Part shown: piece after piece, positions 961-48,372 of the stretch | How positions within the stretch are numbered: the stretch's first letter is position 1 | Layout of the letters: each line of letters begins with the position of its first letter | DNA from: Eledone cirrhosa | Lineage: Eukaryota | Reading direction: 5' to 3' | Length of the DNA: 64,000 nt | Assembly: GCA_964016885.1 (NCBI GenBank) | Contig: OZ024743.1 | Span: forward strand, 204,166,001-204,230,000 | The notes under the pieces: model-generated | Told to the model about the DNA's origin: nothing | Databases searched by the model: none | What the model saw: the letters and a program-made list of their open reading frames with translations, nothing else | Made by a program: the position numbers and the translations under genes

Positions 961-1192
961 TAAGTCAGACATTCGAACACTACATTACAATGAAACTTAT
1001 GCTTATTCATTTTTGGGGCCCTTTCTGCCTGTGTGTTTGTTTGTTTATGTGTGTTCGTATACAGCGTGGTGATAATGCCACACAAGGGCCAAGTGGAATG
1101 GCGGATCCACAGATGGCTATGTAACTATACATTCGCCAATCCTCGATAAGAGTGTTTAAATATCGAACATAAACAGTTCGAATAACGGTGAA

Positions 1193-4100
1193 ATGGAGAC
1201 TAGAACGTCATGTGACAGACTCTCACCCAACAGGTGCCCCCTGGCTCAGCAGCAGGAACCTGACTGTCAACCAAATACTGCTGATGTTGGAGGAGGAAGA
1301 AGAAGGAAAGGGGCCAGAACCAACTGGACGAAAGAATTGAATAGAACTGTTATGCAATGCTACCTGAAAAGTAACCCCAAGGAGAGGGGCTACAGGAGAC
1401 GGATGCATAACATCTGGAACGAGATTGGTTTATTTAAATTAGATGAACAAAAATTGGCCGGGCAAGCTCGGGTAATAAGAACTAATGGGTGGATAAGCGA
1501 GCTGGAACTGGAGGAACTGAGCAGAGAGAATGGCTTGGAGATGGCGGGTGTAGTATGCCAGACAAGCGAGCCAGTGGGAAATGAAGGTGAAGAGGTCCTG
1601 AGAACGGAGGAACCACCCGAAGCAGACAATGATGTGAATACTGAGATAAATAATACCTGGAACAGAGATACGGCCACTGAGGAGATGAATGCTGACGGGC
1701 TAGGACAAGATTCCGTTGACATCCTAAATTTAGTGGTAGATGAATTGAACAATGATAGTGGGAGACCTATGAACCTAAGATTTGTAGACAGGAAAAAGTT
1801 AAAAGAAACAACAGCTAAGGTAAACAAAGTCATCCCATACCTTGAGGCGAGGAGCCTTCACCAGTGCAACAATATCCTCAAAGCAACAGCAAATACGGTG
1901 AGGAAACTACTTGGTATAAAAGCGAGAGGAAACAACAGACAAGAAAGAGCAGAGCCGTGGTGGAAGAAGCGACTGAGTGGGCAAATCGGGGAAATGAGAA
2001 ATGACATAGGAAAGCTTGAGTCACTACTGAATGGGACACTAAAAAACATAGGCACTAAAAATAGACTGGAAATAAAATACAAAACTAGGAGTAAAAAGCT
2101 AAATATTATCATAGAGGAATTGAAGCAACGCATTGTAGCAAAGAGTGCAAAAATCAGGCGATACGAGAACAGAGTCAGTCAGTATAAACAGAACCGCATG
2201 TTCGACAACAACCAGAAGATGCTGTTTGGACAGCTTGAGGGGAAAGAAAGAGGCAACGACTTGATCCCTGGGGCGGAACAAACTAAAACATTCTGGAGAG
2301 GAATATGGGAGCAGGATGTTAGACACAATGCCCAGGCAGGGTGGATTGACACAGTACAGAGGGAGATCGGTGAGCAGGCACAGCAACAGACTGATTTGAG
2401 TATCACAGTTGAAACTCTTAAGGGGCAGGCCAAAAAACTAACCAACTGGAAATCACCAGGCCCAGATGGTGTGCAGGGGTATTGGATTAAACATTTAACA
2501 TCCCTCCACCCGAAGCTGACGGCCATGTTCAATGACTGCTTGGTGTCGGGTGAGGTGCCAGAGTGGTTGACAAAAGGTACCACAGTTCTGATAATGAAAG
2601 ACCGAATCAAGGGTAATGATGTTGCCAACTATAGACCTATCACATGTCTGTCCGTAATGTGGAAACTGTTGACGAGCATTGTGTCTGAGGAAATCTACCA
2701 TCACCTCCACACAAACAACTTGTTACCGGACGAACAGAAAGGATGCCGAAAGAAGTCACGTGGTACAAAGGACCAGTTGCTTATTGATAAGATGGTAATG
2801 GGGAATTGCAGGAGGAGACACACTGATCTTGCCATGGGATGGATAGACTACAGAAAGGCATTTGACATGGTGCCTCATTCCTGGATCACCAAGAGCCTGG
2901 AGATCTTCAGGGTGGCAGATAACATCAGACAGTTGCTAGGCAGGAGTATGGGGTCCTAGGAGACAGAGTTGACATCAACTGGAGTATCCTTGGGAAGCGT
3001 GAAGATCAAGAGAGGTATCTTCCAGGGAGATAGCCTGTCCCCTCTGTTGTTTGTCCTTGCCCTGATGCCCTTGACCATTATGCTGCGAAAAGTGAGAGCA
3101 GGATACAAGTTGGGAAGGGGAGAGCTCACCATCAATCACCTCCTCTTCATGGACGATCTTAAGCTCTTCGGGAAAAGTGAGAAGGAGTTGGATGTGCTTG
3201 TTGACACTGTCCGTATTTTCAGCAATGATATGATATATGTATGCAATTTCGTATTAGTAAGTGTGGAGTCCTTGTGATGAAGAGGGGTAGGTTGAGCAGA
3301 AGTAACGGGATCCAGATACCAACAGGTGAGATGATAAAGGAAATTGACTCTGAGGAAGGATACAAGTATTTGGGCGTTCTGGAGGCTGATGGCATAAAGA
3401 ACAAAAAAATGAAGGAATTGTTAAGAACTGAATACATTCGGAGAGTAAGGAGCGTATTGAAGTCACATCTGAACAGCAGAAATGCCATAAGCGCAGTAAA
3501 TTCCCGAGCTGTGTCTATTATCAGGTACAGTGCGGGAATTCTGAGATGGAATGTTGCTGAACAAAAAGAAATGGATAGGAAGACTAGGAAGCTATTGACT
3601 ATCTACAACATGTTCCACAAGAGGAGTGATGTCGATAGACTCTACCTAAGGAGATCTGAGGGTGGAAGAGGTCTTATCAGCATAGAGGACTGTGTTCAGA
3701 TGGAGAAAAACAACCTGTACAAATACGTGACCTATAGTAAGGAGCCAATGCTCAGAACTGTACTGAAGGAGGGGACAGTAGGCCAGGGGATGTCCAAGGA
3801 GGAAATAACATCAAGGAGGAAGAGTAGCCTTAAGGAAAAATCCCTTCATAGTACCTTCTTTGAGAAAACTGAATTTAGAGATCCACAGACATGGAACTGG
3901 TTGAGAAAAGGAGACCTCAAAAAGGCTACAGAAGGAATGCTAATGGCTGCGCAGGAGCAGGCCCTCAAAACGAAGTGGTTGAAGCACCATATCTACAAGG
4001 AGGAGGCTAGCCCACTGTGCAGGATCTGTGGAGAGAGAGAGGAGACTGTGGCTCACATTGTGTCCGAGTGTAAACACCTAGCCCAGACCCACTATAAGGG

Positions 4101-4665
4101 CTGGAGACACGATGTGATGGGCAGGGTGATCCACTGGCACCTGTGCAAAGTAAACAATTTACCACATTCTGAGAAATGGTATGAGCATAGGCCAGAGGCG
4201 GTGATGGAGAACAATCAGGTGAAGGTGCTGTGGGATTTTAGGATACAGACGGACAAAAAACTGGAACACAATAGACCTGACCTGGTGGTTGTGGACAAAG
4301 AAAAAAGATCGTGCCTGATTGTGGATGTGGCCTGCCCGTTCGACACGAGAGTGCAAGAGAAGGAGAGGGAGAAAATTAACCGATACCAGGACCTAAAGTG
4401 GGAGGTGAAAAGGATTTGGAACTGCCATGAAGTCAAAGTGATCCCGATTGTCATAGGCGCACTGGGGACTATCTCCAAAAGTTTCCAGGGATGGTTAAAG
4501 AAAATCGGCCCCTTCACGCTTTTTGGAACGCTTCAAAAGGCATGCTTGCTTGGAACAGCAAGAACCCTCCGATACGTCCTGAATATCTGAGGCTGCAGGT
4601 AGCGGCTTGATATTCAATCCAACGGACTTTCCAGTTAACCAACATCAATGACTGAGATTCAAGGA
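1193..4665 (+). mobile_element. R4/Dong-clade RLE non-LTR retrotransposon, copy A (near full length, pseudogenised)
   Basis: ORF pieces 1193-2959, 2969-3277 and 3241-4590: RT (KSPGPDG, NYRPITCL, IDYRKAFD, GIFQGDSLSP, FMDD), zinc knuckle CRICGEREETVAHIVSEC, RH, RLE motif RPDLVVVDK..IVDVACP..EK. Premature stop at 2957-2959 and a frameshift near 3230. Ends in (TAA)n. The 5' UTR probably extends upstream. Confidence 0.93.
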
Positions 4666-4676
4666 ATAACAACAAC

Positions 4677-4710
<34 letters not shown>

Positions 4711-7426
4711 TCAACAAGTGACATAGACATGCTGATAGAAATAATCAAGCAAAAAGTGTCGGCCAAAGCTCCTCGTATAAGGCGCTTTGAAAAACGATCT
4801 AGATTCTATAAGGACAATAATATGTTCAAAAACAACCAAAGAAACTTCTACAGAAAAATTGGTAAGTCAACAATAACTGCTAAGTCAATACCACCCAAGG
4901 AGGAAGTGCAAGAATTCTGGGAAAAGATCTGGGCCGAAGAAAAAGTTCATAACATGGATAGACAGACAAATGAAAGATACAGCTCACCTTGAGGAACAAA
5001 TATGGGAAAATATAACAGTTGAACAGTTGCGCTTGGCTCTAAGAAAAACCAGCAAATGGAAATCCCCAGGAAAAGACAAAATACAATTTTTTTGGATAAA
5101 TGCCTTCACAGAGTCTCATGAGCTGTTAGCCCAACTTTACAATGAAATAGTTAAGGAGCCAGAAAAGATACCATCATGGCTAGTTAACGGCATTACATTC
5201 CTGCTTCCGAAGAATGATGAGACAAACAATCCCCAAAATTACAGACCGATAACTTGCTTGACCACAATGTATAAAATTTTAACATCAGTCCTAACTGAAT
5301 ACACATATGACCACCTGATAACAAATGACCTATTTCCCATTGAGCAGAAAGGGTGTAAACGAGGCTCATATGGCTGTAGGGATCAGCTTTTGGTTAACAA
5401 AATGATACTGGAAGATTGTCATAATAGACACAAAAATCTATCGATTGCTTGGATAGATTATAAAAAAGCATTCGATAGTTTGCCACACAGTTGGATTGAA
5501 AAATGTTTAGAGATTTTCAAAATATCCCCCGTTGTCAGGAGGTTTTTGTCATTCAGTATGAAGACATGGAAAACGACACTCCTTTTGAATAGTGAAACAA
5601 AATCACTGGAAGCTGGAGAAGTTAATATTAATTGTGGAATTTTTCAGGGTGACTCTTTATCACCGCTTTTATTCTGCATCGCACTTATACCATTAAGTAA
5701 AATGCTCAATGAAACAAAACATGGAGATAAAGTCTATGACAAAACCATTAATCACTTGTTCTACATGGATGACCTGAAACTATTTGCAAAAAATGATGAA
5801 CAATTGCAAGGGCTATTATCCACTGTGGAGCAGTTCAGTGATGACATTAAAAGCAACGTTCACCAGAGGAAAGCTGCTGAAGTGTTCAGACATTAATCTT
5901 GATCGGGGGAACGTGATAAGAGAACTTGATCAAGAAAAAACTTACAAATATCTAGGTGTTTGTGAAGGAGACGGAATCAAGCACTCGACGATGAGGGAAA
6001 GGATAAGGAAGGAATGTTACCGCAGAGTAAGAGCAATCTTAAGAACGGAATTGAATGCAAGGAATAGGATCGATGCCATAAACACGCTTGCCATACCAGT
6101 AGTAACCTACAGTTACAATGTCATCAACTGGTCAAGCACAGAGATCCGTAGGCTCGATACAAAAATTCGAAAATTCTTAACCATGCACAGAATGCATCAC
6201 CCTAAGGCAGATATAGATAGAATATATCTCCCTAGGAAAGAAGGAGGACGTGGGTTAATCCAGTTAGACATTGCGTTGAAAACTGCAACAATTGGATTAT
6301 CTACATATCTAAGGGAATCACATGATTGGATGATCAAACTCGTTTTGAAACACGAAAGCATCAAAAGATCATATTCCATTACAAAAGATGCACAAAGATA
6401 CAGTAATGGACTACAAATTTCAGAAGTCCCATTTACTGCTGAAATGGAAAACACAGAAAAAGCAAAGCAGGTAAAAGTAACTGCAAAGAAAGAACTGCTA
6501 CAGAAACTGGCTAAGAAGTGGCAAGAAAAGCCTCTGTATGGAAAATACCCAGAACGAGCTAACAATCCTGATGTTGACAAAACTTTAACCCATCAGTGCT
6601 TGGCATCCTCTGGACTGAAATCGGAGACTGAAGGACTGATTATATCAGCACAAGATCAGTGTCTGCCAACAAAAAATTACCAAGCCAACATAATAAAAAA
6701 TGGATGCAGCCCATTATGCCGTGTATGCAAAACACAACCAGAGACCATTGACCATATAATTTCAATGTGCAGTCCTATACCTCCAACCCAATACCTAAAC
6801 AGGCATGACAGAGCTGCACAATACATACATTGGATAATGTGTAAGCATTTTGACCTGCCCCATCAAAATAATTGTTGGGAGCATCAACCACCACCCATAC
6901 TTGAAAAAGATCACATCTCAATCTTGTGGAACTTTAGCATCCAAACAGACCGAAAAATAGATGCAAATAAACCTGATATAATACTGAAGGACTTTAAAAA
7001 GAGGGTATGCCTGCTAATTGATATGTCCGTTCCAATAGACAAGAATGTATCTATAAAAACATTTGAAAAATTGAGCAAGTATAAGGACCTGGAGATAGAA
7101 ATTGGAAAAATGTGAAAATTGAGAACTAAAACAATACCAGTGGTTGTAGGCACTCTGGGAGTGATACCTAAGGGGTCTATTGATTACTTATCGCAAATCC
7201 CAGGAAACTCGCGTATAGGAGAAATACAAAAGATAGTACTAATGGGAACTGCCCATATACTAAGGAAGATTCTGTCAATATAACTACATCACAAGTCTAA
7301 ACACTAAAGATGCATGTGTGAGTATGTATATTCTTTCTTGAACATGGCGGACCTTGTTGTCTCTTGAGGTCACTGGTTGTGACTTGGTGATAACTCGTAT
7401 GAACATAAAGCAAGATAAATGCAACT

Positions 7427-7427
<1 letters not shown>
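4711..7427 (+). mobile_element. R4/Dong-clade element, second subfamily (copy B, 5'-truncated, frameshifted)
   Basis: ORFs 4648-4992, 4970-5896 and 5784-7115 with YMDD RT, CRVC..H..C knuckle and KPDIIL RLE; bounded by (TAA)n on both sides. Confidence 0.92.
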
Positions 7428-7475
<48 letters not shown>

Positions 7476-7476
<1 letters not shown>

Positions 7477-7660
7477 CTACATATCTAAGGGAATCACATG
7501 ATTGGATGATCAAACTCGTTTTGAAACACGAAAGCATCAAAAGATCATATTCCATTACAAAAGATGCACAAAGATACAGTAATGGACTACAAATTTCAGA
7601 AGTCCCATTTACTGCTGAAATGGAAAACACAGAAAAAGCAAAGCAGGTAAATGCAACTGT
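7476..7660 (+). mobile_element. Internally deleted mini-copy of Dong subfamily B
   Basis: 7476-7650 matches ~6300-6475, joined via taaa to the 3' terminus aaatgcaactgt (as at 7417-7428); (TAA)n on both sides. Confidence 0.85.
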
Positions 7661-7679
7661 AATAATAATAATAATAATA

Positions 7680-10600
7680 ATGTCGGTGGAAGAAGAAGAA
7701 GGAAAGGGACCAGAACCAACTGGACGAAAGAATTGAATAGAACTGTTATGCAATGTTACCTGAAGAGTAACCCCAAGGAGAAAGGCTATAGGAAACGGAT
7801 GCATAACATCTGGAACGAGATTGGTCTATTTAAATTAGATGAACAAAAATTGGCCGGGCAGGCTCGGGTAATAAGAACTAATGGGTGGATAAGCGAGCTG
7901 GAACTGGAGGAACTGAGCAGAGAGATTACGTTGGAAATGGAGGGTGGAGTATGCCAGGCAAACGAGCCAGTGGAAAATGAAGGTGAAGAGGTTGAGAGAA
8001 CGGAGGAAGCATCCGAAGCAGACAATGATCTGAATGCTGAAATAAATAATTGTTTCTACTTTAGGAACAAGGCCAGCAATTACCCAGTGCATTACTGGTA
8101 CTTTATTTTATCGACCCCGTAAAGATGAAAGGCAAAGTCAACCTCGGCGGGATGGAACAAAGATACGGCCATTGAGGAGATGAATGCTGACGAGCTAGGA
8201 CAAGATTTGGTTGATATCCTAAACTTAGTGGTAGATGAATTGAACAATGATAGTGGGAAACCTATGAACCTGAGATTTGTAGACAGGAAAAAGTTAAAAG
8301 AAACAACAGCTAAGGTAAACAAAGTCATCCCATACCTTGAGGCAAGGAGCCTTCACCAGTGCAACAATATCCTGAAAGCAACAATGCGGTGAGGAAATTA
8401 CTTGGCATAAAAGCGAGAGGAAACAACAAACAAGAAAAATCAGAACCTTGGTGGAAGAAACAACTGAATGGTCAAATCAAGGAAATGAGAAATGACATTG
8501 GAAAGCTTGAGTCCCTACTGAATGGGACACTAAAAATAGACTGGAAATAAAGTACAAAACTAGGAGGTAAAAGCTAAATATTATCATAGAGGAACTGAAG
8601 CAACGCATTGTAGCAAAGAGTGCAAAAATTAGGCGATACAAGAGCAGAGTCAGTCAGTATAGACAGAACCAACTGGAAATCATCAGGCCCAGATGGTGTG
8701 CAGGGGTATTGGATTAAAAATATAACATCCCTCCACCCCAAACTGACAACCATGTTCAATGACTGCTTGATGTCAGGTGAGGTACCAGAGTGGTTGACAA
8801 AAGGTACTACAGTTCTGGTAATGAAAGACCGAATCAAGGGTAATGATGTTACCAACTATAGATCTATCACATGTCTGTCCGTAATGTGGAAACTTTTGAC
8901 AAGCATTATGTCTGAGGAAATCTACCATCACCTCCACACAAACAACTTGTTACCGGACGAACAGAAAGGATGCCGAAAGAAGTCCCGTGGTACAAAGGAC
9001 CAGTTAGTTATTGATAAGATGGTAATGAGGAATTGCAAGAGGAGACACACTGGTCTTGCCATGGGATGGATAGACTACAAAAAGGCATTTGACATGGTGC
9101 CTCATTCTTGGATCACCAAAAGCCTAGAGATCTTCAAGGTGTCAGATAACATCAGACAGTTGTTGGGCAAAAGTATGAAGTCCTGGAAAACAGAATTAAC
9201 ATCAGCTAAAGAATCCTTGGGAGGCGTGAAGATCAAGAGAGGTATCTTCCAGGGAGATAGTCTGTCCCCACTGTTGTTTGTCCTTGCCCTGATGCCCCTG
9301 ACCATTATACTGCGAAAAGTGAGAGCAGGATACAAGTTGGGAAAGGGAGAGCTTACCATCAATCACCTCCTTTTCATGGACGATCTTAAGCTCTTCGGGA
9401 AGAGTGAGGAGTTGGATGTGCTTGTTGAAACTGTCCGTATTTTCAGCAATGATATGATATATGTATGCAATTTCGTATTAGTAAGTGTGGAGTCCTTGTG
9501 ATGAAGAGGGGGTAAATTGAGCAGAAGCAACGGAATCCAGGTACCAACAGGTGAGATGATAAAGGAAATTGACACTGAAGAAGGATACAAGTATTTGGGT
9601 GTTCTGGAGGCTGATGACATCAAGAACAAAAGAAATGAAGGAATTTATAAGATCTGAATACATTCGGAGAGTAAGGAGCGTATTAAAGTCACATCTGAAC
9701 AGTAGGAATGCCATAAGTGCAGTAAATTCCCGAGCTGTGTCTATTATTAGGTACAGTGCGAGAATTCTGAGATGGAATGTTGCTGAACAAAAAGAAATGG
9801 ATAGGAAGACTAGGAAGCTATTGACTATCTACAACATGTTCCACAAGAGGAGTGATGTCGATAGACTCTACTTAAGGAGATCTGAAGTTGGAAGAGGTCT
9901 TATCAGCATAGAGGACTGTGTTCAGATGGAGAAAAACAACCTACACAAATACGTGACTGATAGTAAGGAGCCAATGCTCAGAATTGTACTGAAGGAGAGG
10001 ACAATAGACCAGGGGATGTCCAAGGAGGAAATAACAACAAGGAGAAAGAGCAGCCTTCATGAAAAATCCCTTCATAGTACATTCTTTGAGAAAACTGAAT
10101 TCAGAGATCCACAGACATGGAACTGGTTGAAAAGAGGAGACCTTAAAAAGGCTACAGAAGGAATGCTAATGGCTGCGCAAGAGCAGGCCCTCAAAACGAA
10201 GTGGTTGAAACACCATATTTACAAGGAGGAGGCTAGCCCACTGTGCAGGATCTGTGGAGAGAGAGAGGAGACTGTGGCTCACATTGTATCCGAGTGTAAA
10301 TACCTAGCCCAGACTCACTATAAGGGCTGGAGACATTATGTGATGGGCAGGGTAATCCACTGGCACCTATGCAAAGTAAACAATTTACCACATTCTGAGA
10401 AGTGGTATGAGCATAAGCCAGAGTCGGTGATAGAAAACGATCAGGTGAAGGTGCTGTGGGATTTTAGGATACAGACGGACAAGAAACTGGAACACAATAG
10501 ACCTGACCTGGTGGTTTTGGACAAGGAAAAAAGATGGTGCCTCATTGTGGATGTGGCCTGCCCATTCGACACGAGAGTGCAAGAGAAGGAGAGGGAAAAA

Positions 10601-10830
10601 ATTAACCGATACCAGGACTTAAAGCACTAGGTACTATCTCAAAAAGTTTCCAGGGATGGTTAAAGAAAATTGGCCCCGCCACGCTTTTTGGAACGCTTCA
10701 AAAGGAATGCTTGCTGGGAACAGCAAGAACCCTCCGATACGTCCTGAATATCTGAGGCTGCAGGTAGTGGCTTGATATTCATTTCAACAAACTTTCCAGT
10801 TAATTAACATCAATGACTGAGACTCAAAGA
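7680..10830 (+). mobile_element. R4/Dong element copy D (subfamily A; truncated, deleted, SINE-interrupted)
   Basis: Colinear with 1283-4665, with deletions near 8535, 8665 and 10625 and a SINE piece at 8047-8152. Same 3' UTR, followed by (TAA)n. Confidence 0.92.
8047..8152 (-). mobile_element. SINE 3' fragment inserted in Dong copy D
   Basis: Reverse complement of cccgccgaggttgactttgcctttcatc...gtaccagtaatgcactgggtaattgctggcc, as in the SINE at 31216. Confidence 0.85.
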
Positions 10831-10941: not shown

Positions 10942-13900
10942 TTTCTTTATTAACCACAAGGGTTTACATAAAGTAGACATTAAGGACAGTGCAGGACAAT
11001 ACAGGACGGTACAAATAGGCATTTCTGCGTGTAAAAAACAAAAACAGAGGATGTAAGAAAAAATAACAATGAAAAATTCCCCAATAGGGGGGAGACTTCG
11101 GAGGGACATTTGTGGAGAAAGCCCAGTAAAATGCCATAATGACCCTGACCACCAAGGAAAGTGCCCTCTCCCAGTTTTCCACCTTTAATTTACAGATATA
11201 TACTCACTCGGGCCATTCTTGCTTCTCTCACCCATCTTTCAACAAAATGCTGGGAAGAGAGCACTTCCCTCTCTACCCTGATTTTCCTTTTCAAATGAAA
11301 TTTGAAAAAGTTAATCAGGGCATCACCGAAGAGGTATGTGCACGTCTTCAGCCCTTTCAAACGTGTCCACCATACTATCTCTTTCGCCATGGCCACCAGA
11401 CAGATAAAAACTGCCTGCCCTTCCAGGCTAAAGGAAGAGGGCGGGGCAATCCTCATGATGGACTCAGCTGATAGCTGGATCCGTCCTACACGTGACAGCA
11501 GGTATTCGACATAAACCCACAAGTCAGCAATGCTCGGACACTGGACGAGTGCGTGCAGGACGGTTTCGTCGCCCTGCGCGCATCTCGGACATTCCCGGCT
11601 GACGGCACCTCCATGCCTGTAGAGTTTATCCCGAACTGGCAAAGGTCCTCAGTAGCAGTGCCAGGCCAGGGATTTCTGGAAGTTGTCCATAGGCCCCGGC
11701 CCGAAAGTCCTTCCGAAGAGATTGGCTAGTTGATTTTCGTCGACGCTTAGAGTTTCTCCAAGTGCATCGTCGCTCTTCCCCTCCACTAATCCTCTATAGA
11801 ACGCCAAAGTGGAGTGTCCACCGATCACATTGCCCGATTGGTCGAGGGCTGTGAGCGCCTGAAGACATTCCAGTCTCCAAGCGCTCCCTCTCGGTCTTCG
11901 CTTGACCCAGGACTGCAGCTCCGTCAAGGAGACGAGCTGGGGAAAGACGTGTCTAGCAAACGGCGACCACACCTGATCACCGTCGAGGAACAGGTGGAGA
12001 TGTCGTAGCCTGAGCGCGTGTCTGCGCATCATCATCCACGGCATGCCCAGCCCTCCACGTAGCGGGTGTTTACAGCAGATGGACCGCCTGACCATCGGAG
12101 CGCGTCCCTTCCACAAAAAGCGAAAGAGCAAACGCTCCAGCGCAGTCAGGCGGGGCTTAGGACAAGGTACGACGGTCAGGCGGTAGTAGTTGACTAACGC
12201 GATGTACGCGTTGGCTACCTCCGCTTGACCTTTCAGGGATCGCTTCCTCTCCGCTCATTTCTGGGTGAGAGAAGCCACCCTGCTCGTCACCTCGTCCCAG
12301 TTTTTGTCTGTATGGAGGTCCGGACCGATCCAGACCCCTAGCAATTTAACCGGTCCGTCCGTCCAGCGCCCGACGACGCTGTTGGGCGGCATGGACCTGC
12401 CTCTCCAGGTGCCGAGCTGCAGGCCCACTGACTTTTCCTGGTTGATCATTGCTCCTGTCACCGCTTCGTATTCTCTTAGTGTAGTGCCGATCGCCTCGAT
12501 GTGTTTGGCGTTCGACACCACTACGGTGACATCGCCCGCATATGCTGACACGGATATTCCGCATCCTAGTTCGCGCGGGACACCCCTCAACGTTTCCAGT
12601 TTGTGCAGTAATGGCTCGAGAGTCAATATGTACAAGAGGGACGAGAGGGGACATCCTTGGCGGACCGAGCGCATGATGTTGAACGGTTCCGAAAGGTAAC
12701 CGTTCACTCTCACCACAGAGCAGATGTCGCTGTGTATGGCAGCGATCCAGCCTCTGAAGACGGGCCCAAAGCCAGCCGCCCTCAGGACTGCCGCTAGGTA
12801 ACGATGGTCGACCCTATCGAAAGCTTTCGACTGATCTAAATTGATCAAGGACCCACCCGTGCCAGGTTCCCTAGCTACGCTCTCTACGATGTATCGCAGG
12901 TGGAGGTGGAGGTTGTCGTGGATGGATCTGTCGGGATTGGCGCATGTCTGCGCCTCTTCCACCAGACCACCAACGACAAGCGCCAACCTCTCTGCTAGCA
13001 CCTTGGCCAAAATCTTGAACTCTGTGTTTAGCAGAAATATGGGCCTGAAATTATCTATGTTATCCCCCTTGTTCGGATCATTGCTCTCAGCAGCGTCACA
13101 GCTCCTCGGCTCACAGAGCTGGGAATTCTCCCGTTCTGTTGCCAGTTGCAGTAGACGTCCGCCAAGAGGCCTCCGAACAAGTCTGGCATCTGTACGTAAA
13201 GTTCATAGGGCAGACCATCCAAACCAGGCGATTTACCCCTTGTGCAGCCAGTCATTGCCTCCCGTACTTCAGCGGCTGTTATCGGCTTTTCGCAACACTC
13301 CCCCTCAGTGGCCGAGAGCGGCGGCAGTCCGTCGAGGTAGACACTAAAGTCCATCCCTCGATCCGGCCCGCCGCTGCCCCCGAACAGCTGCGCAAAGTGT
13401 CGATGAAAAGCTTCACACATTTTCCCGGGATCGTGGCTTTGTTGCTACGACGCGCCTCCGCCACTCGGGCCCATTGAACGGCTTTCGTCTCCTCGTGTCT
13501 GAGAGCACGCACCCTAGCTCTGACAACGCAGCCTTCGTGCTTTGCATTGAAGAATTGGCCAAGGGCCAATATCACCGCAAGTACGTCGGTCGCGATGCCT
13601 TTTCTAGTAGCCGGGTCCTCGTCTATGAAGCCTATCTAAGTCAAGCACACAGATCACGAATGTGTGGTCCGTGTAGCTGACTATCTTGAATTGTGGACAG
13701 CCTATGCTAGACCTATCTATTTCCCTACAAAATACTCTATCTAGATATGATCTGGATGACCCTATGCGATTTGTCCAAGTCCACATTGGCACATTCGGGA
13801 AATCCAATCGGTACGTGTCAGACAGTTCAAAACACCTGAGCAGGTTGGTGAGGCTCTTGTACCATCCTCCCCTATCCGCTAATCCCACACAGTCCCAGCG

Positions 13901-15894
13901 TGCATCTAAGATCCCGTTCTAGTCGCCCACTAACACTAAAGAGCGGGACGTTCCAAGAAAGGTCTCCAGACGCCGCAAGAAATCAGGCCGCCCTGCTCCT
14001 GTCGGGGCATAGACGGCCACTATCCTAAAAGCTTGCCCGTCTCCGCTGGTCACGTCTAGCACCACCAACTTACCTCCGTGCGTCGGAGATTCTGGTCTCG
14101 CTGATGACCACTACATCTATGTTTAGTGACCTGAGGTCGTTGAGCAGGTGGCCCTGCTTCCATGACGACCCCAAGCCACGCGCATTTATGCTGCCTATTC
14201 TGAGTGAGATCATGTTGAAATGGAGTGGAAAAGATGGGAAAGACCCTTACCTTACTTCTCGTAGAGGAAGGATGGTTTATCCATCCCTTTTCACTTCATC
14301 GTCTGGTGAAGGGACCGTTGAATCGTCCCTTCGGCTGGTCGTCGGCTCTTTTGTGAGTATATCCGAATATACTCTCCGGTTGAGTGTCCCTCCTAGGTCT
14401 CTGAAATCACCAACTGCGTTGGGGAATTTCGTTTTAATGTTAGAGTATTGTTTCTGTGCTATTCTTACCAGTCTTATGTTCGTTGGTGTTTTGATTGGTG
14501 CTGGTATTATGTAGTCGTGCTGTGAAATGTTTGTGTGTTCAATTATGTAAGTCATTAGTTTCTTGTTGTGTGTGTTTTGTTGTTGTGTTTGCGATGTTGG
14601 TGCTTGTGGTGGTGGTGTTGAAGGTGTTGTTGTTGTTTGCGGTGGTGTTGCCGCCGGCGGTGATGGTGGTGCTAGTGTGGGTGGTGATGGTGTTGATGGT
14701 GTTGCTGCTGTAAGTCTCTTTGCAGTAGCCTTTACCCTTTTTTCATTTCTTTCCTCCCTTTTCGAAGGCGACGATGCGCTGCTTCTGCGTTTGAGCCTTC
14801 TTGCGACCTTTTGCCATTCCTCTCCCACCTCACACTCCATGTCTGATTCTGTGAGGTCGGGGAGGGATACCAGCTCCAATCTTTCACTTGTTGTTGTTGG
14901 TGATGTTTGCAGTGGAGTCTCTGTTGCAGCTGCAGTTGGTATTACTGTTGTTGTTGTTAATACTTCCACTGCTGCTGCTGTTCTTGATTTCCGTGGCGTG
15001 GGTATGGGTGCCACGGACTTATCCTTCTTGGTTGCCGCCTGTCCTGTTGCTGATAGCAGTGGAGCCGGTTTCGTAAGGAGGGGGGTTTCCTCCTTTCTCA
15101 GGGTCGTCTCATTGCAGAAGGACCTGAAGTGAGTCTTCGATCCACAGCGAAAGCATTTCGGGCGTTTGGCCTCAACACTTAAGGGCAGTTGACTGCTGTT
15201 ATCGAAGTCTATCACATCCGGGATAGCTTCGATGCACTCCTGGTTGGTTTGGATTAACATCTCAATGGAGTTGCCAACCCAATCTTCTCGTACTTTTTTC
15301 TGTACTTGCAGTACAGTTGTTTTGTCCTCGATTTCGACGAGGACAGTCGCGGCCAGCCAAGAAGGGGCCATCCCGGGGGTAGTGGGTCAGTTTGACCCTC
15401 ACAATTTTTTGCCCGCACCAACACCAACACCATTTCCTCGTTCCTTGGGGTCACTAAGGATTGAGCCTTTGTCTCCTGAGGTGTGGCAAAAAGCACGTCC
15501 ACGGTAGCATATTTCTTGCCTCGGGTGATATGCGTTTTCCGCTGCCACACAGACCCTGAGGCTTTTTGTATTTGAACCTCTGTGGCTCTTTCCACCCTAC
15601 GGGATTTTCTGCTTACTGTACGGTACGTGACCGTACAGTGCTGTTGGGTTTCGAAAAATGTTTCGGCTGCCTTGCAGATGGCTCGTTGTCCAGTTTTCGT
15701 CACCATCTTCTTTGCTTCCTGTAATTCCTCATTTGTTATAAGGATGGTTTCCAGGTTCTTTGCGATACCTGCAAACGAGATTGGTTTTTCTTTCTTGTTG
15801 TTGTTGTTGCGTCAGAGCTGCTGTTACTTTTGTTGTTGCTGCTGGTACTACGACCGCCGCCGCCGCTGTTGCTGTGGTTGTTGTTGTTGTTTGC

Positions 15895-19754: not shown

Positions 19755-22620
<2,866 letters not shown>

Positions 22621-22931
22621 TTCTTACAAACTTGTGGAGTTACCCCTAACCGTACGTTGAAACCATCCATGAAACTGGCTTTCTTAACCAAGAACTGGAT
22701 CACAATAAGCAATTTTTTGCTTCTCTAACTATATATATATATATATATGTTTATATAGATATATAAATGCATTTGTATATATATATATACAAATAAAAGG
22801 CAGAGCTAATAACTCATACTGATACCCTGTAATTAACAAGCTCAAAGTATAGATACTGAGCATTATAGTACCAGTAATGCACTGGGTAATTGCTGACCTT
22901 GTGCCTAAAGTAGAAACAATTATATAATAAT

Positions 22932-23207: not shown

Positions 23208-23701
23208 ATGTATGGTATATTTGGCAATATACCGTATGTTTAATTAAAAACATTTAGAAGACCATACGCTATCAGTTTTAAAGTAGTGACTATGTCACTT
23301 ACTTCTTTTCGCCGAAAGAAGGGAGAAAAGCTCACAGTCTATTTCACGCTGGTTGCCGTTCATTATTTGCCGTTCTGCAAAGATTAGGTATTACGATTGG
23401 TGCGATGTATAAATGAATGTATGTATAGTATATTTGGCAATCTACCGTATGTTTCATCAGAAGACCATACGCTATCAGTTTTTTGGATTGACCGGCATTC
23501 GGTCTGTATAATCAGCTCCTGATTATTACTGGAATTCTATAAAAATCCAGCTTCTATAATTTTCGACGGAAGCAGGGGGTGCGGGGCTCTGATGAACGCC
23601 AACCAGCGTGAAACACACTGTCAGCTTCTTTCCCTGATAGTGTATGGTCTTCCAAATATTTTTAATTAAACATACGGTATATTGCCAAATATACCATACA
23701 T
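23208..23701. mobile_element. Fold-back MITE in (TA)n
   Basis: ~65-bp terminal inverted repeat tatggtatatttggcaatataccgtatgtttaattaaaaa..gaagaccatac, plus an internal third copy near 23425-23480. Confidence 0.75.
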
Positions 23702-25133: not shown

Positions 25134-25546
25134 TTATATGTTATAGTTGTATATAGTGTATACATAACTATAAATAATATTATATATATATATATATATA
25201 TTTGTGTGCGTGTGTGTGTGTGTATGTATGTATGTATATATATATAATATATATAAATGTATATATATATATATATATATACATATATATAAATGTATAT
25301 ATATATATGGATATATATATATATATACAATTAAGTTAAAGTGTACATCTACATATGTATACGGAAGTATTAGTATGCATATAAATACACACATGTATAC
25401 ATATGTACATGTACTCAGCTTTTCACTAGACACTTTACAGTGAGTGTCAGCTAGTCTGTATGTAACCACACAGGCGGACCGGGTTTTAGAGTCATACGAG
25501 TTTTCAAGGAAACACATTTCCTCTATTCTCCAGAGGGCCAGACAGG

Positions 25547-25591
25547 AATATTGGACTAGTTTCGATGTTATTACATCTCATCAGCAATATT
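25547..25591 (-). ncRNA. Minimal type I hammerhead ribozyme, array copy 1
   Basis: AAUAUUG-CUGAUGA-GAUGU aaua ACAUC-GAAA-CUAG-UC^CAAUAUU. Confidence 0.9.
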
Positions 25592-26015
25592 TACCCATCT
25601 TCCGGCTTCTCTGGAGAATTGTAAAAGCACATATCGTTATATGCTTTTTCTATGAAAATTAGTAGTGGGTAGACCAATTTGCATAGAACGTGAGTCATTG
25701 TACGCACCGGTTCAGCGGAAACGATAAAAACAAATAACGAAACGAAATCAAACTTCGTTTCGCTTCTAACTCACTTTTGTATGACTGACGCTTAAACAAT
25801 TAAGTTAAAGTGTACATCTACATATGTATACGGAAGTATTAGTATGCATATAAATACACACATGTATACATATGTACATGTACTCAGCTTTTCACTAGAC
25901 ACTTTACAGTGAGTGTCAGCTAGTCTGTATGTAACCACACAGGCGGACCGGGTTTTAGAGTCATACGAGTTTTCAAGGAAACACATTTCCTCTATTCTCC
26001 AGAGGGCCAGACAGG

Positions 26016-26060
26016 AATATTGGACTAGTTTCAATGTTATTACATCTCATCAGCAATATT
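26016..26060 (-). ncRNA. Minimal type I hammerhead ribozyme, array copy 2
   Basis: Same motif; the stem II closing pair is G-U rather than G-C. Confidence 0.85.
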
Positions 26061-26093
26061 TACCCATCTTCCGGCTTCTCTGGAAGATGGGTA

Positions 26094-26138
26094 AATATTG
26101 CTGATGAGATGTAATAACATCGAAACTAGTCCAATATT
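26094..26138 (+). ncRNA. Minimal type I hammerhead ribozyme, array copy 3
   Basis: 7-bp stem I, CUGAUGA, 5-bp stem II, GAAA-CUAG-UC; predicted cut after 26131. Confidence 0.92.
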
Positions 26139-26562
26139 CCTGTCTGGCCCTCTGGAGAATAGAGGAAATGTGTTTCCTTGAAAACTCGTATGACTCTAAA
26201 ACCCGGTCCGCCTGTGTGGTTACATACAGACTAGCTGACACTCACTGTAAAGTGTCTAGTGAAAAGCTGAGTACATGTACATATGTATACATGTGTGTAT
26301 TTATATGCATACTAATACTTCCGTATACATATGTAGATGTACACTTTAACTTAATTGTTTAAGCGTCAGTCATACAAAAGTGAGTTAGAAGCGAAACGAA
26401 GTTTGATTTCGTTTCGTTATTTGTTTTTATCGTTTCCGCTGAACCGGTGCGTACAATGACTCACGTTCTATGCAAATTGGTCTACCCACTACTAATTTTC
26501 ATAGAAAAAGCATATAACGATATGTGCTTTTACAATTCTCCAGAGAAGCCGGAAGATGGGTA

Positions 26563-26607
26563 AATATTGCTGATGAGATGTAATAACATCGAAACTAGTC
26601 CAATATT
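26563..26607 (+). ncRNA. Minimal type I hammerhead ribozyme, array copy 4
   Basis: Identical motif; predicted cut after 26600. Confidence 0.92.
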
Positions 26608-27031
26608 CCTGTCTGGCCCTCTGGAGAATAGAGGAAATGAGTTTCCTTGAAAACTCGTATGACTCTAAAACCCGGTCCGCCTGTGTGGTTACATACAGAC
26701 TAGCTGACACTCACTGTAAAGTGTCTAGTGAAAGGCTGAGTACATGTACATATGTATACATGTGTGTATTTATATGCATACTAATACTTCCGTATACATA
26801 TGTAGATGTACACTTTAACTTAATTGTTTAAGCGTCAGTCATACAAAAGTGAGTTAGAAGCGAAACGAAGTTTGATTTCGTTTCGTTATTTGTTTTTATC
26901 GTTTCCGCTGAACCGGTGCGTACAATGACTCACGTTCTATGCAAATTGGTCTACCCACTACTAATTTTCATAGAAAAAGCATATAACGATATGTGCTTTT
27001 ACAATTCTCCAGAGAAGCCGGAAGATGGGTA

Positions 27032-27076
27032 AATATTGCTGATGAGATGTAATAACATCGAAACTAGTCCAATATT
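27032..27076 (+). ncRNA. Minimal type I hammerhead ribozyme, array copy 5
   Basis: Identical motif; predicted cut after 27069. Confidence 0.92.
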
Positions 27077-27539
27077 CCTGTCTGGCCCTCTGGGAATAGA
27101 GGAAATGTGTTTCCTTGAAAACTCGTATGACTCTAAAACCCGGTCCGCCTGTGTGGTTACATACAGACTAGCTGACACTCACTGTAAAGTGTCTAGTGAA
27201 AAGCTGAGTACATGTACATATGTATACATGTGTGTATTTATATGCATACTAATACTTCCGTATACATATGTAGATGTACACTTTAACTTAATTGTTTAAG
27301 CGTCAGTCATACAAAAGTGAGTTAGAAGCGAAACGAAGTTTGATTTCGTTTCGTTATTTGTTTTTATATATATATACATTTATATATATGTATATATATA
27401 TATATATAAATGTATATATATATGTATATATATATAAATGTATATATATATATATATATATATACATACATATAAATGTATATATATGTATATATGTGTA
27501 TATATATATATATATAAATTTTTGTATATATACATATAA

Positions 27540-27638
<99 letters not shown>

Positions 27639-27959
27639 CATATAAATTTATATATATATATTGAAACCCACTTCTGCTTGCCTGAACTCAAAGACCGAGA
27701 TCTTCAGATGTTGTCCTCACCTGAAATCACATCTGATCTGTAACTGGATTGACATTCCTACGATAACTCAACCACTTTGAACTCCTTCTCTGCTCTTTAG
27801 TTCCACTACGGTGTTTTTACCTGCTGAATTCACGTTCTATACTCTCGTATTCTCTTTCTCCCTTATCTCCCCTTATATTTAGACCTTTTCCTATGTCAAT
27901 TCCGCCCCCCCCCTACTTTCTGCCTTACCACTCACACACCCAATTTTTTTTATTTTTAG

Positions 27960-31402: not shown

Positions 31403-32753
31403 TATTAATATATACATTTTATTATAAATGTATATATAATTCATTGTCACATATTACATTTAATGTCTATACATATTATATTATATTTCAATTACTGTAT
31501 ATCTTATAAGTAATCTAAAGTATTTATATTATAAGGTGGTGACTAGATGTTTATTTCTAGAGTATAATGTTAGAGATAAATAGGATTTGTGTAGAGGAAA
31601 GAGCAGATCAAAGAGTGTGATGCTGTCGGGGAAGGTTTAAAGCTATCCAATGAGTGTCGGTAGCGTTGTTGGCACGAGGAAAACATCTCTGACTTTTTAT
31701 TTAGGAGGGTTAGTTTCGAAAAGATTGTGTTTTTTGAAAGAATGGATGTGCGAGTTGTATCTCGTCTTGAAGCAGTTCGAAGTAGAGCCAATATATGTTT
31801 TAGAAGAGTTGTTTGTGTTGACCGTGCAGGAGTAAATGATGTCTTTGATTAAGCAATTATTACTTAATGGGCAAGTTCTATTTGATCTACAGTTACATTT
31901 ATTTTGGATGTTATCTTGCCGGTTATTATGTTGTGTAGAAGTCTGGTTGTTATGGATAGCATTAGGGTTGTCGTTCCTATTGTTATTGATTTCATTAGTG
32001 TTATTACTATTATTACTATTGCTACTAGGGTTTGTAGTTATTATGTTGTTCTATAAGTTTACCTCCTGCTGTGTTTTAATTAGTTGGAGATAATTATTAA
32101 TCTTCCTTTTATTACTACTAGCTATATGGTATGCTATGTTAGGTGTGGTAGAGTAAGAGATTTTAATGGTGTTTTTATTTATAAGATTTTGGTATTTGTG
32201 GCCAGATGGGAATTTTTTTTCTAGGATTGAGAAGAAAGCCTTAGTTAAGTTGGTAGAGACGGTTGAAGAATGTATTAGTTCTTCTATTTTTGTTTTTTGT
32301 AATATCTATTGAAGTATTTCTGTTTATAATATTATTGTGGTGTTTACGTTGGTGCGAGTTAAGTTTGATCTTACCCTTCGTATAAGAGTAAGATTGGCTA
32401 GTACTCTTATTATTTTTCCTCATGGCCATATTGTGAGAAATGATGCTGTAACTATGTGATTTTATAGGTAGGAATTCAATCCCATTTTTCTGGCCTGATT
32501 TAGCTAATGTTTGATTATAGTATTGGTAATTATTATTAAATATGGTTTCGTTATATGATAGATTAGAGATTCTATTAGATATTCCTTTAGTGATTGAGTT
32601 TAATATGGATTTAGGGTGGTTAGACTTGGTATCCACATAAATTAGTTTTTCGTTAGGTTTATGAAAGGGTGTATATATTTTAGAGTCTAGGTAAACGGTA
32701 GCATCAAGGAATATACATTTATATATTTATATATATATATATATAATATATAC

Positions 32754-36663: not shown

Positions 36664-36961
36664 CTAGAAACAAAAACAAAGTTAGACAGATATACACATG
36701 GCTTTACATGATTTTGGTTTTAGTATAATTCATACATGATGTATGTTAGTAGCCTATTGTGTAGTGTATAAAGTAAAACACCGAAGGAAACACTAATCAA
36801 ATTGATTGAATATTATGGATATATATATATATATATATATATATCAATAATATTAATAAATGGAAACTATCTTTATAAAACCATATTTATTTTATTATAT
36901 ATATTTCAAGGGTACCAACATTTTTGGTACGCCCTCATCAGATAAAATACAAAAGTTGTTT

Positions 36962-45819: not shown

Positions 45820-48372
45820 TATATAAAAACTTAGAACTTTCCTCAAAGACTATTATAATCTCACTATTACATTTGAAAACACCAGTAAAATAGTCAATTT
45901 CCTAGATATAAGTTTGGACCTATCTACGGGTATCTACCAACCTTACCATAAACCTAACCAAAACTTGCATTACATACACTCACAATCCAATCACCCTAGA
46001 TCTATCCTTAAAAACCTAGCATATAACATCTCACTCAGGATCTCTAACCTTTCATCAAATCAGGATGTATTCGATGAAAACGTGCCCTTTTATAACGAAG
46101 CTTTAGCTAGAAGCGGCCACAAAAACAAATTAGTATACATACCTTGCACCAATAATATTTCAAACATACAACCTAATATTACCAACAAACACCAAATGAA
46201 AATCCCACACCTAAATGCCACTCATATTACACCTAAAAACACCAACCTAAAACTTAATTTCTCTACCTCTTCTCACATAAAATATAATGACTTTCAAAAA
46301 TCCATTTATCCTAATACTCCAACATATGTTAACAACAGTACTAACAAAATTCCTAATAATCAGACTAAAACACCAAAATCAGTTAATCTAACTAAACCTA
46401 TATATAATAAAATCACTAATAGTAACTCTCTTAGTAAACCTCCTGATACATCGTATAAATATAAGAAACAATATCGAAACCGTAATAGACGGGCTACTTG
46501 GTATAATGCTCCATTTAATCTACAAATTAAAGACCATATCCCTAAAAATTTATTTGCTAGCCTAGAGAAAAACTTCCCACCAAACCATAAATACCATCAA
46601 ATTTTAAATAGATCTACAGTCAAATTTTCCTACTCCACTACCAAAAATATACAACAGAATATAAGTGCGTACAACGCATATAAGTGTAAAAAAAAACATA
46701 AATTTACCACCAACACATCAAACCAACCATAATAATACTAAAATAAACCATAACAAACCATCATCTCCTTCACCTATAACAAGTCCTGTACATGCCACAC
46801 CAAATTTGACTAACTCCCGATATAATATTCACGAATGGTTATAACTGTAGAATCAAAAGAAATTGCCCATTAAAGGGTAATTGTCTTATTAATAACATAG
46901 TCTATAAATGTAAAATTAGCACTGAGGACTCCACTTATTCATATATAGGAGCTACGTCTAACCAATTTAAAGTAAGATTTAATACCCACAAACATAGTTT
47001 TTAAAATGCCGCATTAGCTAATACAACATCTTTGGCTGAAACAATTAATAATTATAGAAAGAAGAACATCGATTACAACCTGACCTGGAGCGGGCTCAAA
47101 AGTGCCACCCCTTATCAAAATAGCAGATACGAGTGTAGGTTATGCTCCCAAGAACTTTTTGAAATCATGAAATCTAAGGATATCCTACTAAATAAGCGAC
47201 AGGAATTAATTATATCTTGCAATCATAGAATTAGAAGAACCTTCAAATATTATAAACCTAATTAATATACACCTTACTCTTATATTTTACAAATTATTAT
47301 AATTGTTTTTTTTTTATTTAGTTAACCTATAATTAGTATTTTACTACAGAGAATTTCATATTTTTATTTCCCTCTTACAGCTCTCTTTTCCTAAAATTAT
47401 TTTTAATCACACTACTTCATTTAGTCGCATCCCCTATTTATCACATTTAATACCTATGATTATTAAATATAATTAATATCTTTAATATTATCAATGTCCG
47501 TATAAAAATGTTTATAAAAATTTTTATCTACTTCAGTTTTTCCATATATTTATTTTTTATTTTTTATTGCTTTAATGTCTTACTTCTTTATTTATCACAT
47601 TCATATGAATTAATATAATTTTATCCCTGTAAGTATACCTATAAATTAATTTAATTTCCTGTTATGTATTTAGATTCCCTGTAGTTTAAATAAGATTGGT
47701 ATTTCTCACTAATACCCTTATCCCAAAATTTTATTTTCCTTCGTTTTTAACAACACTCTTTAATAACATCAAGTTTTTATTTATCACATTCATATGAATT
47801 ATTATAATATTATCCCTGTAAGTATACCTATCAGTTAATTTAAGTTCTTGTTATATATCTAGATTCCTTGTGGTTTAAATAAGATAGGTGTTTCTTACTA
47901 ATAGGTTTCGCACCCAAAATTTTATTTTCCTTCGTTTTTAACAATATTGTTTAATAACATCAAATGTTCGAGTACCATTCACTATCTTCTTGACTTGACC
48001 TCATTTCATCTCCATAGTATTCTTTTCATTCAAAGCATAAGTCTGCACTCCTATACCCCTGGATTTAATTTCTACTACTGTCATTCTATCAACTTGACCT
48101 CTAACTCCTTTTCTATTGGTCAATTCAAAATATGTTCCCAAACAGACCCTTTATACTAATTCTTTGTTTTTTTCAATAAACACATCTCATCATTTCTGAG
48201 GACGGCATGTATATGTGAAGGTATTTATATTTCCTCTGATAATTTGTAATATTTTTACATTGATCTATATGATATACATACCAACACACATACATCCCAG
48301 AAACGATCGTAAAATGATGAATTTTTTAATATAAGGAAATTGTTCTTTGTGTTTATTTCATTGTTTTTATTA

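Follow-up and report, generated by a model that had tools for sequence, protein, structure and literature searches.

How is a short repeat that carries a hammerhead ribozyme motif and encodes no protein copied and inserted at new sites of an animal genome? We addressed this question with a locus at positions 25327-27365 of the window, by which we mean the whole stretch of 64,000 nucleotides analysed, located on contig C4 in an animal genome of 3.0 Gb. The boundaries named in a preliminary description of this DNA agreed with the sequence, as did a 469-bp period with near-identical units (99.6-100% identity between copies) and the presence of (TA)n on both sides (25150-25326 and 27366-27661). 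However, the ~4.3 units proposed to lie in tandem turned out to be divided into 1.62 minus-strand and 2.74 plus-strand units that diverge from each other. A simple head-to-tail array was rejected, as the unit occurs on both strands in two divergent arms. Tandem Repeats Finder reported the 469-bp period only across 26082-27367 (2.74 plus-strand units), while 25324-26084 contains a minus-strand copy of ~760 bases (1.62 units). The region 25324-26830 forms a 99% inverted repeat with its centre near 26077. The features of the locus are listed below; unit positions are numbered from the base following the predicted cleavage site.

25150 to 25326, no strand: (TA)n target, left flank
25327 to 26084, minus strand: left arm with 1.62 units; 5' truncation at unit position ~408, short 3' end at unit position 227
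26082 to 26084, no strand: arm junction, 5'-to-5', with a 3-bp overlap
26082 to 27365, plus strand: right arm with 2.74 units; 5' truncation at unit position ~420, long 3' end at unit position 297
26132 to 26600, plus strand: full 469-nt unit (predicted monomer), 37.5% GC
27296 to 27365, plus strand: 'tail' of ~70 nt, lying between the fixed 3' ends and confined to the right end
27366 to 27661, no strand: (TA)n target, right flank
25547 to 25591, minus strand: type I hammerhead motif, predicted cleavage after 25554
26016 to 26060, minus strand: type I hammerhead motif, predicted cleavage after 26023; stem II bears a C-to-T change giving a G-U wobble
26094 to 26138, plus strand: type I hammerhead motif, predicted cleavage after 26131
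26563 to 26607, plus strand: type I hammerhead motif, predicted cleavage after 26600
27032 to 27076, plus strand: type I hammerhead motif, predicted cleavage after 27069

The last plus-strand unit of the locus exhibited a 1-nt deletion. As had been supposed, the unit is devoid of protein-coding capacity, like a non-LTR retrozyme: its longest ATG-started ORF comprises 64 amino acids, and the start codon is not conserved, the ATG being missing from the sister lineage. No tRNA was found in the 416 bases tested, which cover about nine tenths of the unit. Matches of the locus to Rfam microRNAs were discarded as sub-threshold hairpin and low-complexity matches.

All five complete hammerhead motifs of the preliminary description were confirmed, three on the plus and two on the minus strand. 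Each of them consists of a 7-bp stem I, CUGAUGA, a 5-bp stem II and GAAA-CUAG-UC, and each was matched by Rfam Hammerhead_HH9 (27.6-31.8 bits, E 5e-5 to 1e-3), all at scores lower than the gathering score of 52. The plus-strand sites after 26131, 26600 and 27069 were also correct as predicted cleavage positions. Thus, the locus has the short tandem units of a non-LTR retrozyme, each with a type I hammerhead and at least two of them consecutive. The assignment to type I held as well, whereas the motif is not a minimal hammerhead devoid of helix III; it possesses a 1-bp helix III. Such a helix with a palindromic 4-nt loop is usual for metazoan type I hammerheads according to PMC4209133, which covers the ribozyme form and the dimer model.

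Folding of the 469-nt unit gave a z-score of -9.2 against 100 shuffles, with stem I lengthened to ~29 bp, while the isolated 58-nt ribozyme folded no better than shuffles (z -1.35). Circular-fold z-scores of units were rough, as they were calculated from 12 shuffles only. Between two ribozyme copies a stem III duplex was predicted at -6.2 kcal/mol. The catalytic core and the palindromic CUAG are invariant across four lineages that are 60-88% identical, and stems I and II are compensated. Together with a conserved tail segment described below, the invariant core and the compensated stems suggest that selection acts at the RNA level.

The unit belongs to a large family. The exact 33-nt ribozyme core occurred 1,446 times genome-wide and the reversed control not at all, by which a chance origin of the motif, far exceeded by these numbers, is excluded. 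The expectation that a genome-wide search would reveal dispersed copies in (TA)n was borne out, nearly all ends lying in such tracts. A search with the whole unit yielded at least 360 matches (37 of 791 candidates were scored), so that the family is dispersed over many loci, as is typical of non-LTR retrozymes. Three non-overlapping patterns of related cores gave 5,358, 14,126 and 10,575 matches (controls 0, 3 and 0), and over all four lineages 31,505 ribozyme cores were counted; places of cores were taken among the first 100 matches listed for each core pattern, including the first 100 of the 1,446. The core pattern had no match in viral and metagenome contigs. Representative units of the related lineages have 467, 432 and 466 nt and are 88%, 62% and 60% identical to the window unit and homologous to it over the whole unit. 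The sister lineage is young, its best matches being 99% identical.

Further hammerhead elements were noticed besides the window lineage. L080:5070-6630, L115:3200-3810 and L171 contain related retrozyme lineages of 432 and 466 nt along with variants of more than 500 nt with internal TA growth; some of them have a CUGACGA core. These related lineages are at least seven times as abundant as the window lineage. At 23210-23700 the window harbors a second small two-armed inverted element, which is older and lies between (TA)n tracts, with hammerhead-like motifs at 23589 on the plus strand (weak Rfam HH9 match, E 0.009) and at 23460 on the minus strand. Another recurrent hammerhead-like family with a long stem II and a TA-rich helix III was seen at position 36941 of the window (minus strand) as well as at L040:7233, L052:6255-6414 and L056:5145.

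The locus itself is part of a three-copy segmental duplication with ~148-kb spacing on contig C4, at 204.19 (window), 204.33 (L032) and 204.49 Mb (L031). A segmental paralog with 99.7% identical flanks and the same arm junction has a left arm of 11.6 units, compared to 1.6 in the window, and its extra ten units show variant blocks of period 2 and period 3. Hence, in this one paralog set, arm length also changed after insertion. As the paralogs share their junction and yet differ by precisely ten units, the length of an arm is by itself no proof of rolling-circle copying, and the array length previously read as a sign of such copying loses this meaning. The ten-unit difference between the C4 paralogs may be a real expansion or an assembly effect. 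Each two-armed locus is a long, near-perfect inverted repeat, read-through transcripts of which would form dsRNA at many sites.

For the study of insertion ends, we took the 32 best-scoring loci and, following the order of positions, 34 stretches on contig C1 out of the first 100 cores listed. The window paralogs L031 and L032 were left out, as were L096, a duplicate, and L093-L095, three stretches that belong to a single long array. The 61 loci kept, 31 best-scoring ones including the window and 30 in position order on C1, had been chosen for holding a ribozyme or a full unit. By script scoring, 45 of them showed two divergent arms and 16 showed one. According to PMC8557442, insertions of Penelope-like elements (PLEs) consist of a partial tandem accompanied by an inverted, 5'-truncated copy and have a tail of 30-40 bp on one side; the combination of a partial tandem and an inverted 5'-truncated copy was also found at the 45 loci.

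The arms are joined head to head and their 5' ends are scattered over the unit. Their 3' ends followed a strict rule. All 36 two-arm loci in which both ends could be classed contained one short (222-232) and one long (294-301) end; neither short-short nor long-long pairs occurred among them. In the other nine two-arm loci one end fell outside both classes. Read outside the script scoring, two of these nine loci (L044 and L081) are also short plus long, and so is L086, a locus scored as one-armed. The sister lineage, examined at 16 loci (four one-armed, two cut by the locus edge), gave short plus long in every one of the ten two-arm loci whose two ends were both visible. L077 combines two lineages in a composite and has two short outer ends; at L077:2644-5383, window-type and sister-type insertions are joined at an internal palindrome near unit position 285.

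Nearly all arm ends run into (TA)n. Where the target is no microsatellite (L092 and L068), flanking duplications of 13-16 nt were read, end microhomology included, and L087 showed an imperfect target duplication. Thus, the family shares with PLEs an AT-rich or (TA)n target that is duplicated where this is readable, the duplications being 13-16 nt long versus the 8-10 bp given for PLE-type insertions in PMC3846280. It also shares a tail at one end only, which would be bounded by two start sites of reverse transcription and measures ~70 nt versus 30-40 nt reported. This tail is the most conserved segment between the two closest lineages: 4 of 87 positions of the tail region differ versus 63 of 382 elsewhere (Fisher p 0.003, for a region picked after the ends had been seen). 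We also compared the two arms of 17 loci. In all 16 testable ones, the arms differed less from each other (0.5%) than from the median of the other loci (2.7%).

Because short and long ends are strictly paired and the arms of a locus are most alike, we infer that both strands would be primed on one RNA, one at each site. Gene conversion between the inverted repeats could partly account for the likeness of the arms. The fixed, paired 3' ends and the inverted arms provide the best evidence for a PLE machinery, and judged by these sequence features a PLE-type mobilisation is well supported. This corroborated the earlier assumption of a young, (TA)n-dispersed, ORF-less hammerhead retrozyme mobilised by a PLE, in which, however, neither the division into two inverted arms nor the pair of fixed 3' ends had been noticed.

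Which PLE might be the partner? At L111:3564-8480 we found a full-length, hammerhead-bearing PLE with two pseudo-LTRs (pLTRs) and an open frame of 912 codons for reverse transcriptase (RT) and GIY-YIG. Its motifs, read by eye (C-terminal GIY-YIG, DKT, RWR, CxCx5C, CxxC and CxH), correspond to the description of the Hydra clade in PMC8557442, with RWR in place of RWK; according to this source, PLEs of the clade carry hammerheads and insert in (TA)n. A first look at RTs of the L111 type yielded 38,416 candidates, 150 of which were scored, and many copies keep frames of ~900 codons. Such RTs are very abundant here, versus the few Hydra families outside cnidarians in PMC8557442. Both anchors were found in five of 18 L111-type loci examined, and all five have ends near +50 and +150, with a tail of ~100 nt that thus differs in length from the ~70 nt of the unit. 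The candidate protein had no match by sequence to a solved structure.

A physical connection between a PLE and the unit was seen at one of the 61 loci, L040. Its left arm is the inverted 3' end of another hammerhead element, the abundant PLE of which L111 contains a full copy (99% over 102 bp), followed by a 28-nt exact piece of the PLE ORF and then by 2.7 units, all within (TA)n. The chimera has two short-type ends and not a short plus a long one, and could have arisen by a later deletion between neighbouring insertions. An expected 10-bp microhomology at the PLE/unit junction of L040 was absent, five PLE copies sharing only ~2 nt with the unit there. L115 may represent a second chimera, consisting of family C and another Hydra-type PLE, in a nested cluster. 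The Hydra-type PLE of L111 is therefore best regarded as a lead to the exact partner, suggested by sequence comparison.

The window contains PLE remnants too. On the minus strand of 19866-22729 there is a broken PLE with RT and GIY-YIG pieces (20640-22381) and (TA)n flanks, similar to the Hydra-type family of L085, and further fragments reside at 31697-32726 and 45827-46732. Pfam searches with four PLE pieces of the window resulted in one sub-threshold RVT_1 match and one unrelated weak match. Several broken ORFs at 1160-10630 and 11190-15811 are presumably of non-LTR retrotransposons, for which we assume an RT with a C-terminal endonuclease-like region on the plus strand and an L1/Tx1-like type on the minus strand. 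Elsewhere on the contig, a 2.8-kb period at C4:11.82 Mb was considered as a tandem PLE and rejected; it represents a local duplication and lacks a long ORF.

The data are most probably explained by a young ORF-less 469-nt retrozyme whose arms terminate in (TA)n at two fixed sites through PLE priming on both strands, and the unit appears to represent a novel non-LTR retrozyme family. A PLE reverse transcriptase/endonuclease, probably of the Hydra clade, would nick both DNA strands and prime cDNA at two sites of one RNA. In PMC11167929, the PLE protein, a predicted dimer, is reported to cut and extend both strands, two internal RNA start sites bounding the tail. Following this work and PMC8557442, the fixed ends would be two start sites of reverse transcription and the 70 nt between them the PLE tail together with a protein-binding site; one arm would be primed per nick, and the two cDNAs would join at their truncation points. 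The enzyme could be a Hydra-type PLE such as the L111 element, to which one chimeric locus points. Dimeric hammerhead cleavage and host ligation may then produce a 469-nt circle that both enzymes would copy for more than one turn, by analogy with PMC7229834. For the circle as template, this analogy inclines us somewhat in favor.

Arm 5' ends near the cleavage site were rare, a single one of 90 being found at a distance of up to 3 nt, where 1.3 would be expected by chance. The site was crossed by 74 of the 90 arms, a share enriched by locus selection, and of the crossings 193 were length-exact and none changed, five being unresolved. Linear monomers released by cleavage are thus disfavoured as the copied template, whether or not template jumps are assumed, since arms do not stop at the cleavage site and the crossings are length-exact. 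Arms that do not stop there would fit a ligated circle and an uncleaved multimer alike, and variant patterns within loci do not separate them. It is conceivable, with a chance approaching but not reaching even, that PLE priming on both strands uses a linear multimer which is transcribed from long master arrays and stays uncleaved, with no circle being copied and the hammerhead acting at another step; only the circle step of the explanation given above is contested thereby. Exact junctions and the absence of a 5'-end pile-up fit equally well, and long arrays exist, one of which extends over more than 27 kb from C1:95620986 onward (L093-L095; a lower bound, as its far end lies beyond the stretches taken). 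In addition, hammerhead mutants had no effect on the insertion of an anole PLE in vitro, where uncleaved RNA was the main substrate and hammerhead cleavage was not needed (PMC11167929). Only one of nine Xenopus retrozyme dimers was cleaved according to bioRxiv 10.64898/2026.07.22.740005. However, the sampled long arrays are heterogeneous (the one of L093-L095 is 94-97%, more exactly 93.8-96.8%, identical to the window unit, and unit-specific variants occur in L032 and L058), whereas both arms are homogeneous in young insertions of several units, for example L046. The ribozyme core has moreover been kept across lineages that are only 60% identical, and circles have been shown for retrozymes of coral, mussel and axolotl (PMC7229834).

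The unit might alternatively be the pLTR of an ORF-bearing PLE outside our sample, the loci being 5'-truncated tandem copies of that pLTR. We regard this as unlikely, although 24 of 57 retrozyme families from Xenopus had matches in Repbase, 21 of the 22 elements being PLEs (bioRxiv 10.64898/2026.07.22.740005), and the part of the window family read is small (37 of 791 candidates and the first 100 of 1,446 places). In none of the 66 fetched stretches was the unit adjoined by a PLE ORF of the same orientation, nor did these loci present an RT plus GIY-YIG ORF between pLTRs as in an autonomous PLE. Arms extend up to 15 units without entering an ORF, and the homology of the four lineages extends around the entire unit. 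With the L111 PLE, the unit shares low-complexity sequence only. Similarity to the pLTR of an autonomous partner was likewise not observed for the L111 PLE or for the PLEs in the window and in L031-L128, a small part of the PLE families of the genome. When the tail was compared at weak similarity to the window and L031-L128, only retrozyme lineages were retrieved. Family C, which shares the tail, was considered as an autonomous partner and rejected, as it is another ORF-less retrozyme lineage. That the locus is a satellite or foldback DNA element, spread by recombination or another DNA-level mechanism and with incidental ribozyme motifs, is highly improbable: the change of arm length after insertion (11.6 vs 1.6 units in the paralogs), the block-periodic variants in L032 and L058 and the long inverted arms would agree with it, but fixed 3' ends combined with random 5' ends and strict short-long pairing are unexpected from DNA-level spread and largely refute it, and moreover an autonomous PLE obeys the same rule and the ribozyme stems are compensated.

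Returning to PLE priming on a circular RNA, we tentatively propose a more specific picture. A dimer of a Hydra-clade PLE protein may grip one 469-nt circle at the 70-nt element and prime both strands, one at each edge, which would amount to a double rolling-circle reverse transcription. This route would have served a single viroid-sized lineage for so long that it split into families only 60% identical and left more than 31,000 cores, with no surviving pLTR parent. If true, an enzyme and its RNA would be named for the first time as a pair behind retrozyme mobility, and the tandem, inverted and tail structures of PLEs would be explained directly. The insertion ends themselves carry a PLE signature, and the strict rule of one short and one long end would imply coupled priming on one RNA. 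With this, the insertion-end evidence for retrozyme mobility seems better here than what we found in print. The genome holds an intact candidate enzyme, a defined substrate of 469 nt and two predicted start sites; substrate and candidate enzyme also bear on the question how PLEs make inverted, tailed insertions.

A literature search retrieved no description of the window family or of paired fixed ends in retrozymes, and the accessible text of PMC13282606 mentions neither ribozymes nor retrozymes. The family resembles metazoan non-LTR retrozymes (PMC7229834; bioRxiv 10.64898/2026.07.22.740005) in its ORF-less tandem units of a few hundred bases with low GC and a type I hammerhead each, in a strongly self-paired RNA, in thousands of dispersed copies and in the co-occurrence with PLEs. 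The length of 469 nt, previously thought to be unusually large, is slightly above the ~170-400 nt given for animal retrozymes in PMC7229834, where criteria of 150-450 bp and less than 50% GC are applied and mobilisation by PLEs is proposed. With 469 bp and 37.5% GC the unit is 19 bp over that size range and within the 51-972 bp reported for retrozyme families in the preprint, which by its text sampled no molluscs. Inverted second arms, fixed 3' ends and a tail, as seen in the window family, are reported for retrozymes in neither publication; the word 'inverted' does not occur in the text of PMC7229834, and in that of the preprint, supplements aside, it appears once, in a reference title, and 'tail' not at all. 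For published retrozymes the link to PLEs consists of co-occurrence and pLTR similarity, from which the preprint argues a PLE origin, whereas for the window family it consists of insertion ends and one chimera, with no pLTR similarity among the PLEs compared. Circles have been shown for published retrozymes (PMC7229834), while the window family is known from sequence alone.

Chlamys elements such as MRC1 (PMC8557442) are similar to the window family in being putatively non-autonomous, multicopy, head-to-tail insertions of PLE type. They differ in stemming from a green alga, in being generally similar at the 3' end to autonomous partners and in that no canonical hammerheads were found in most of them. 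With EN+ PLEs of the Hydra clade (PMC8557442; PMC11167929), the family shares (TA)n targets, partial tandems accompanied by an inverted copy that is 5'-truncated, a tail at one end, a hammerhead near the 3' end and, as predicted from its ends, two start sites of reverse transcription, both strands being extended in vitro in the PLE system. Unlike these elements, it contains no ORF, the whole element being the repeat, its tail measures ~70 instead of 30-40 nt, and its arms comprise up to 15 units.
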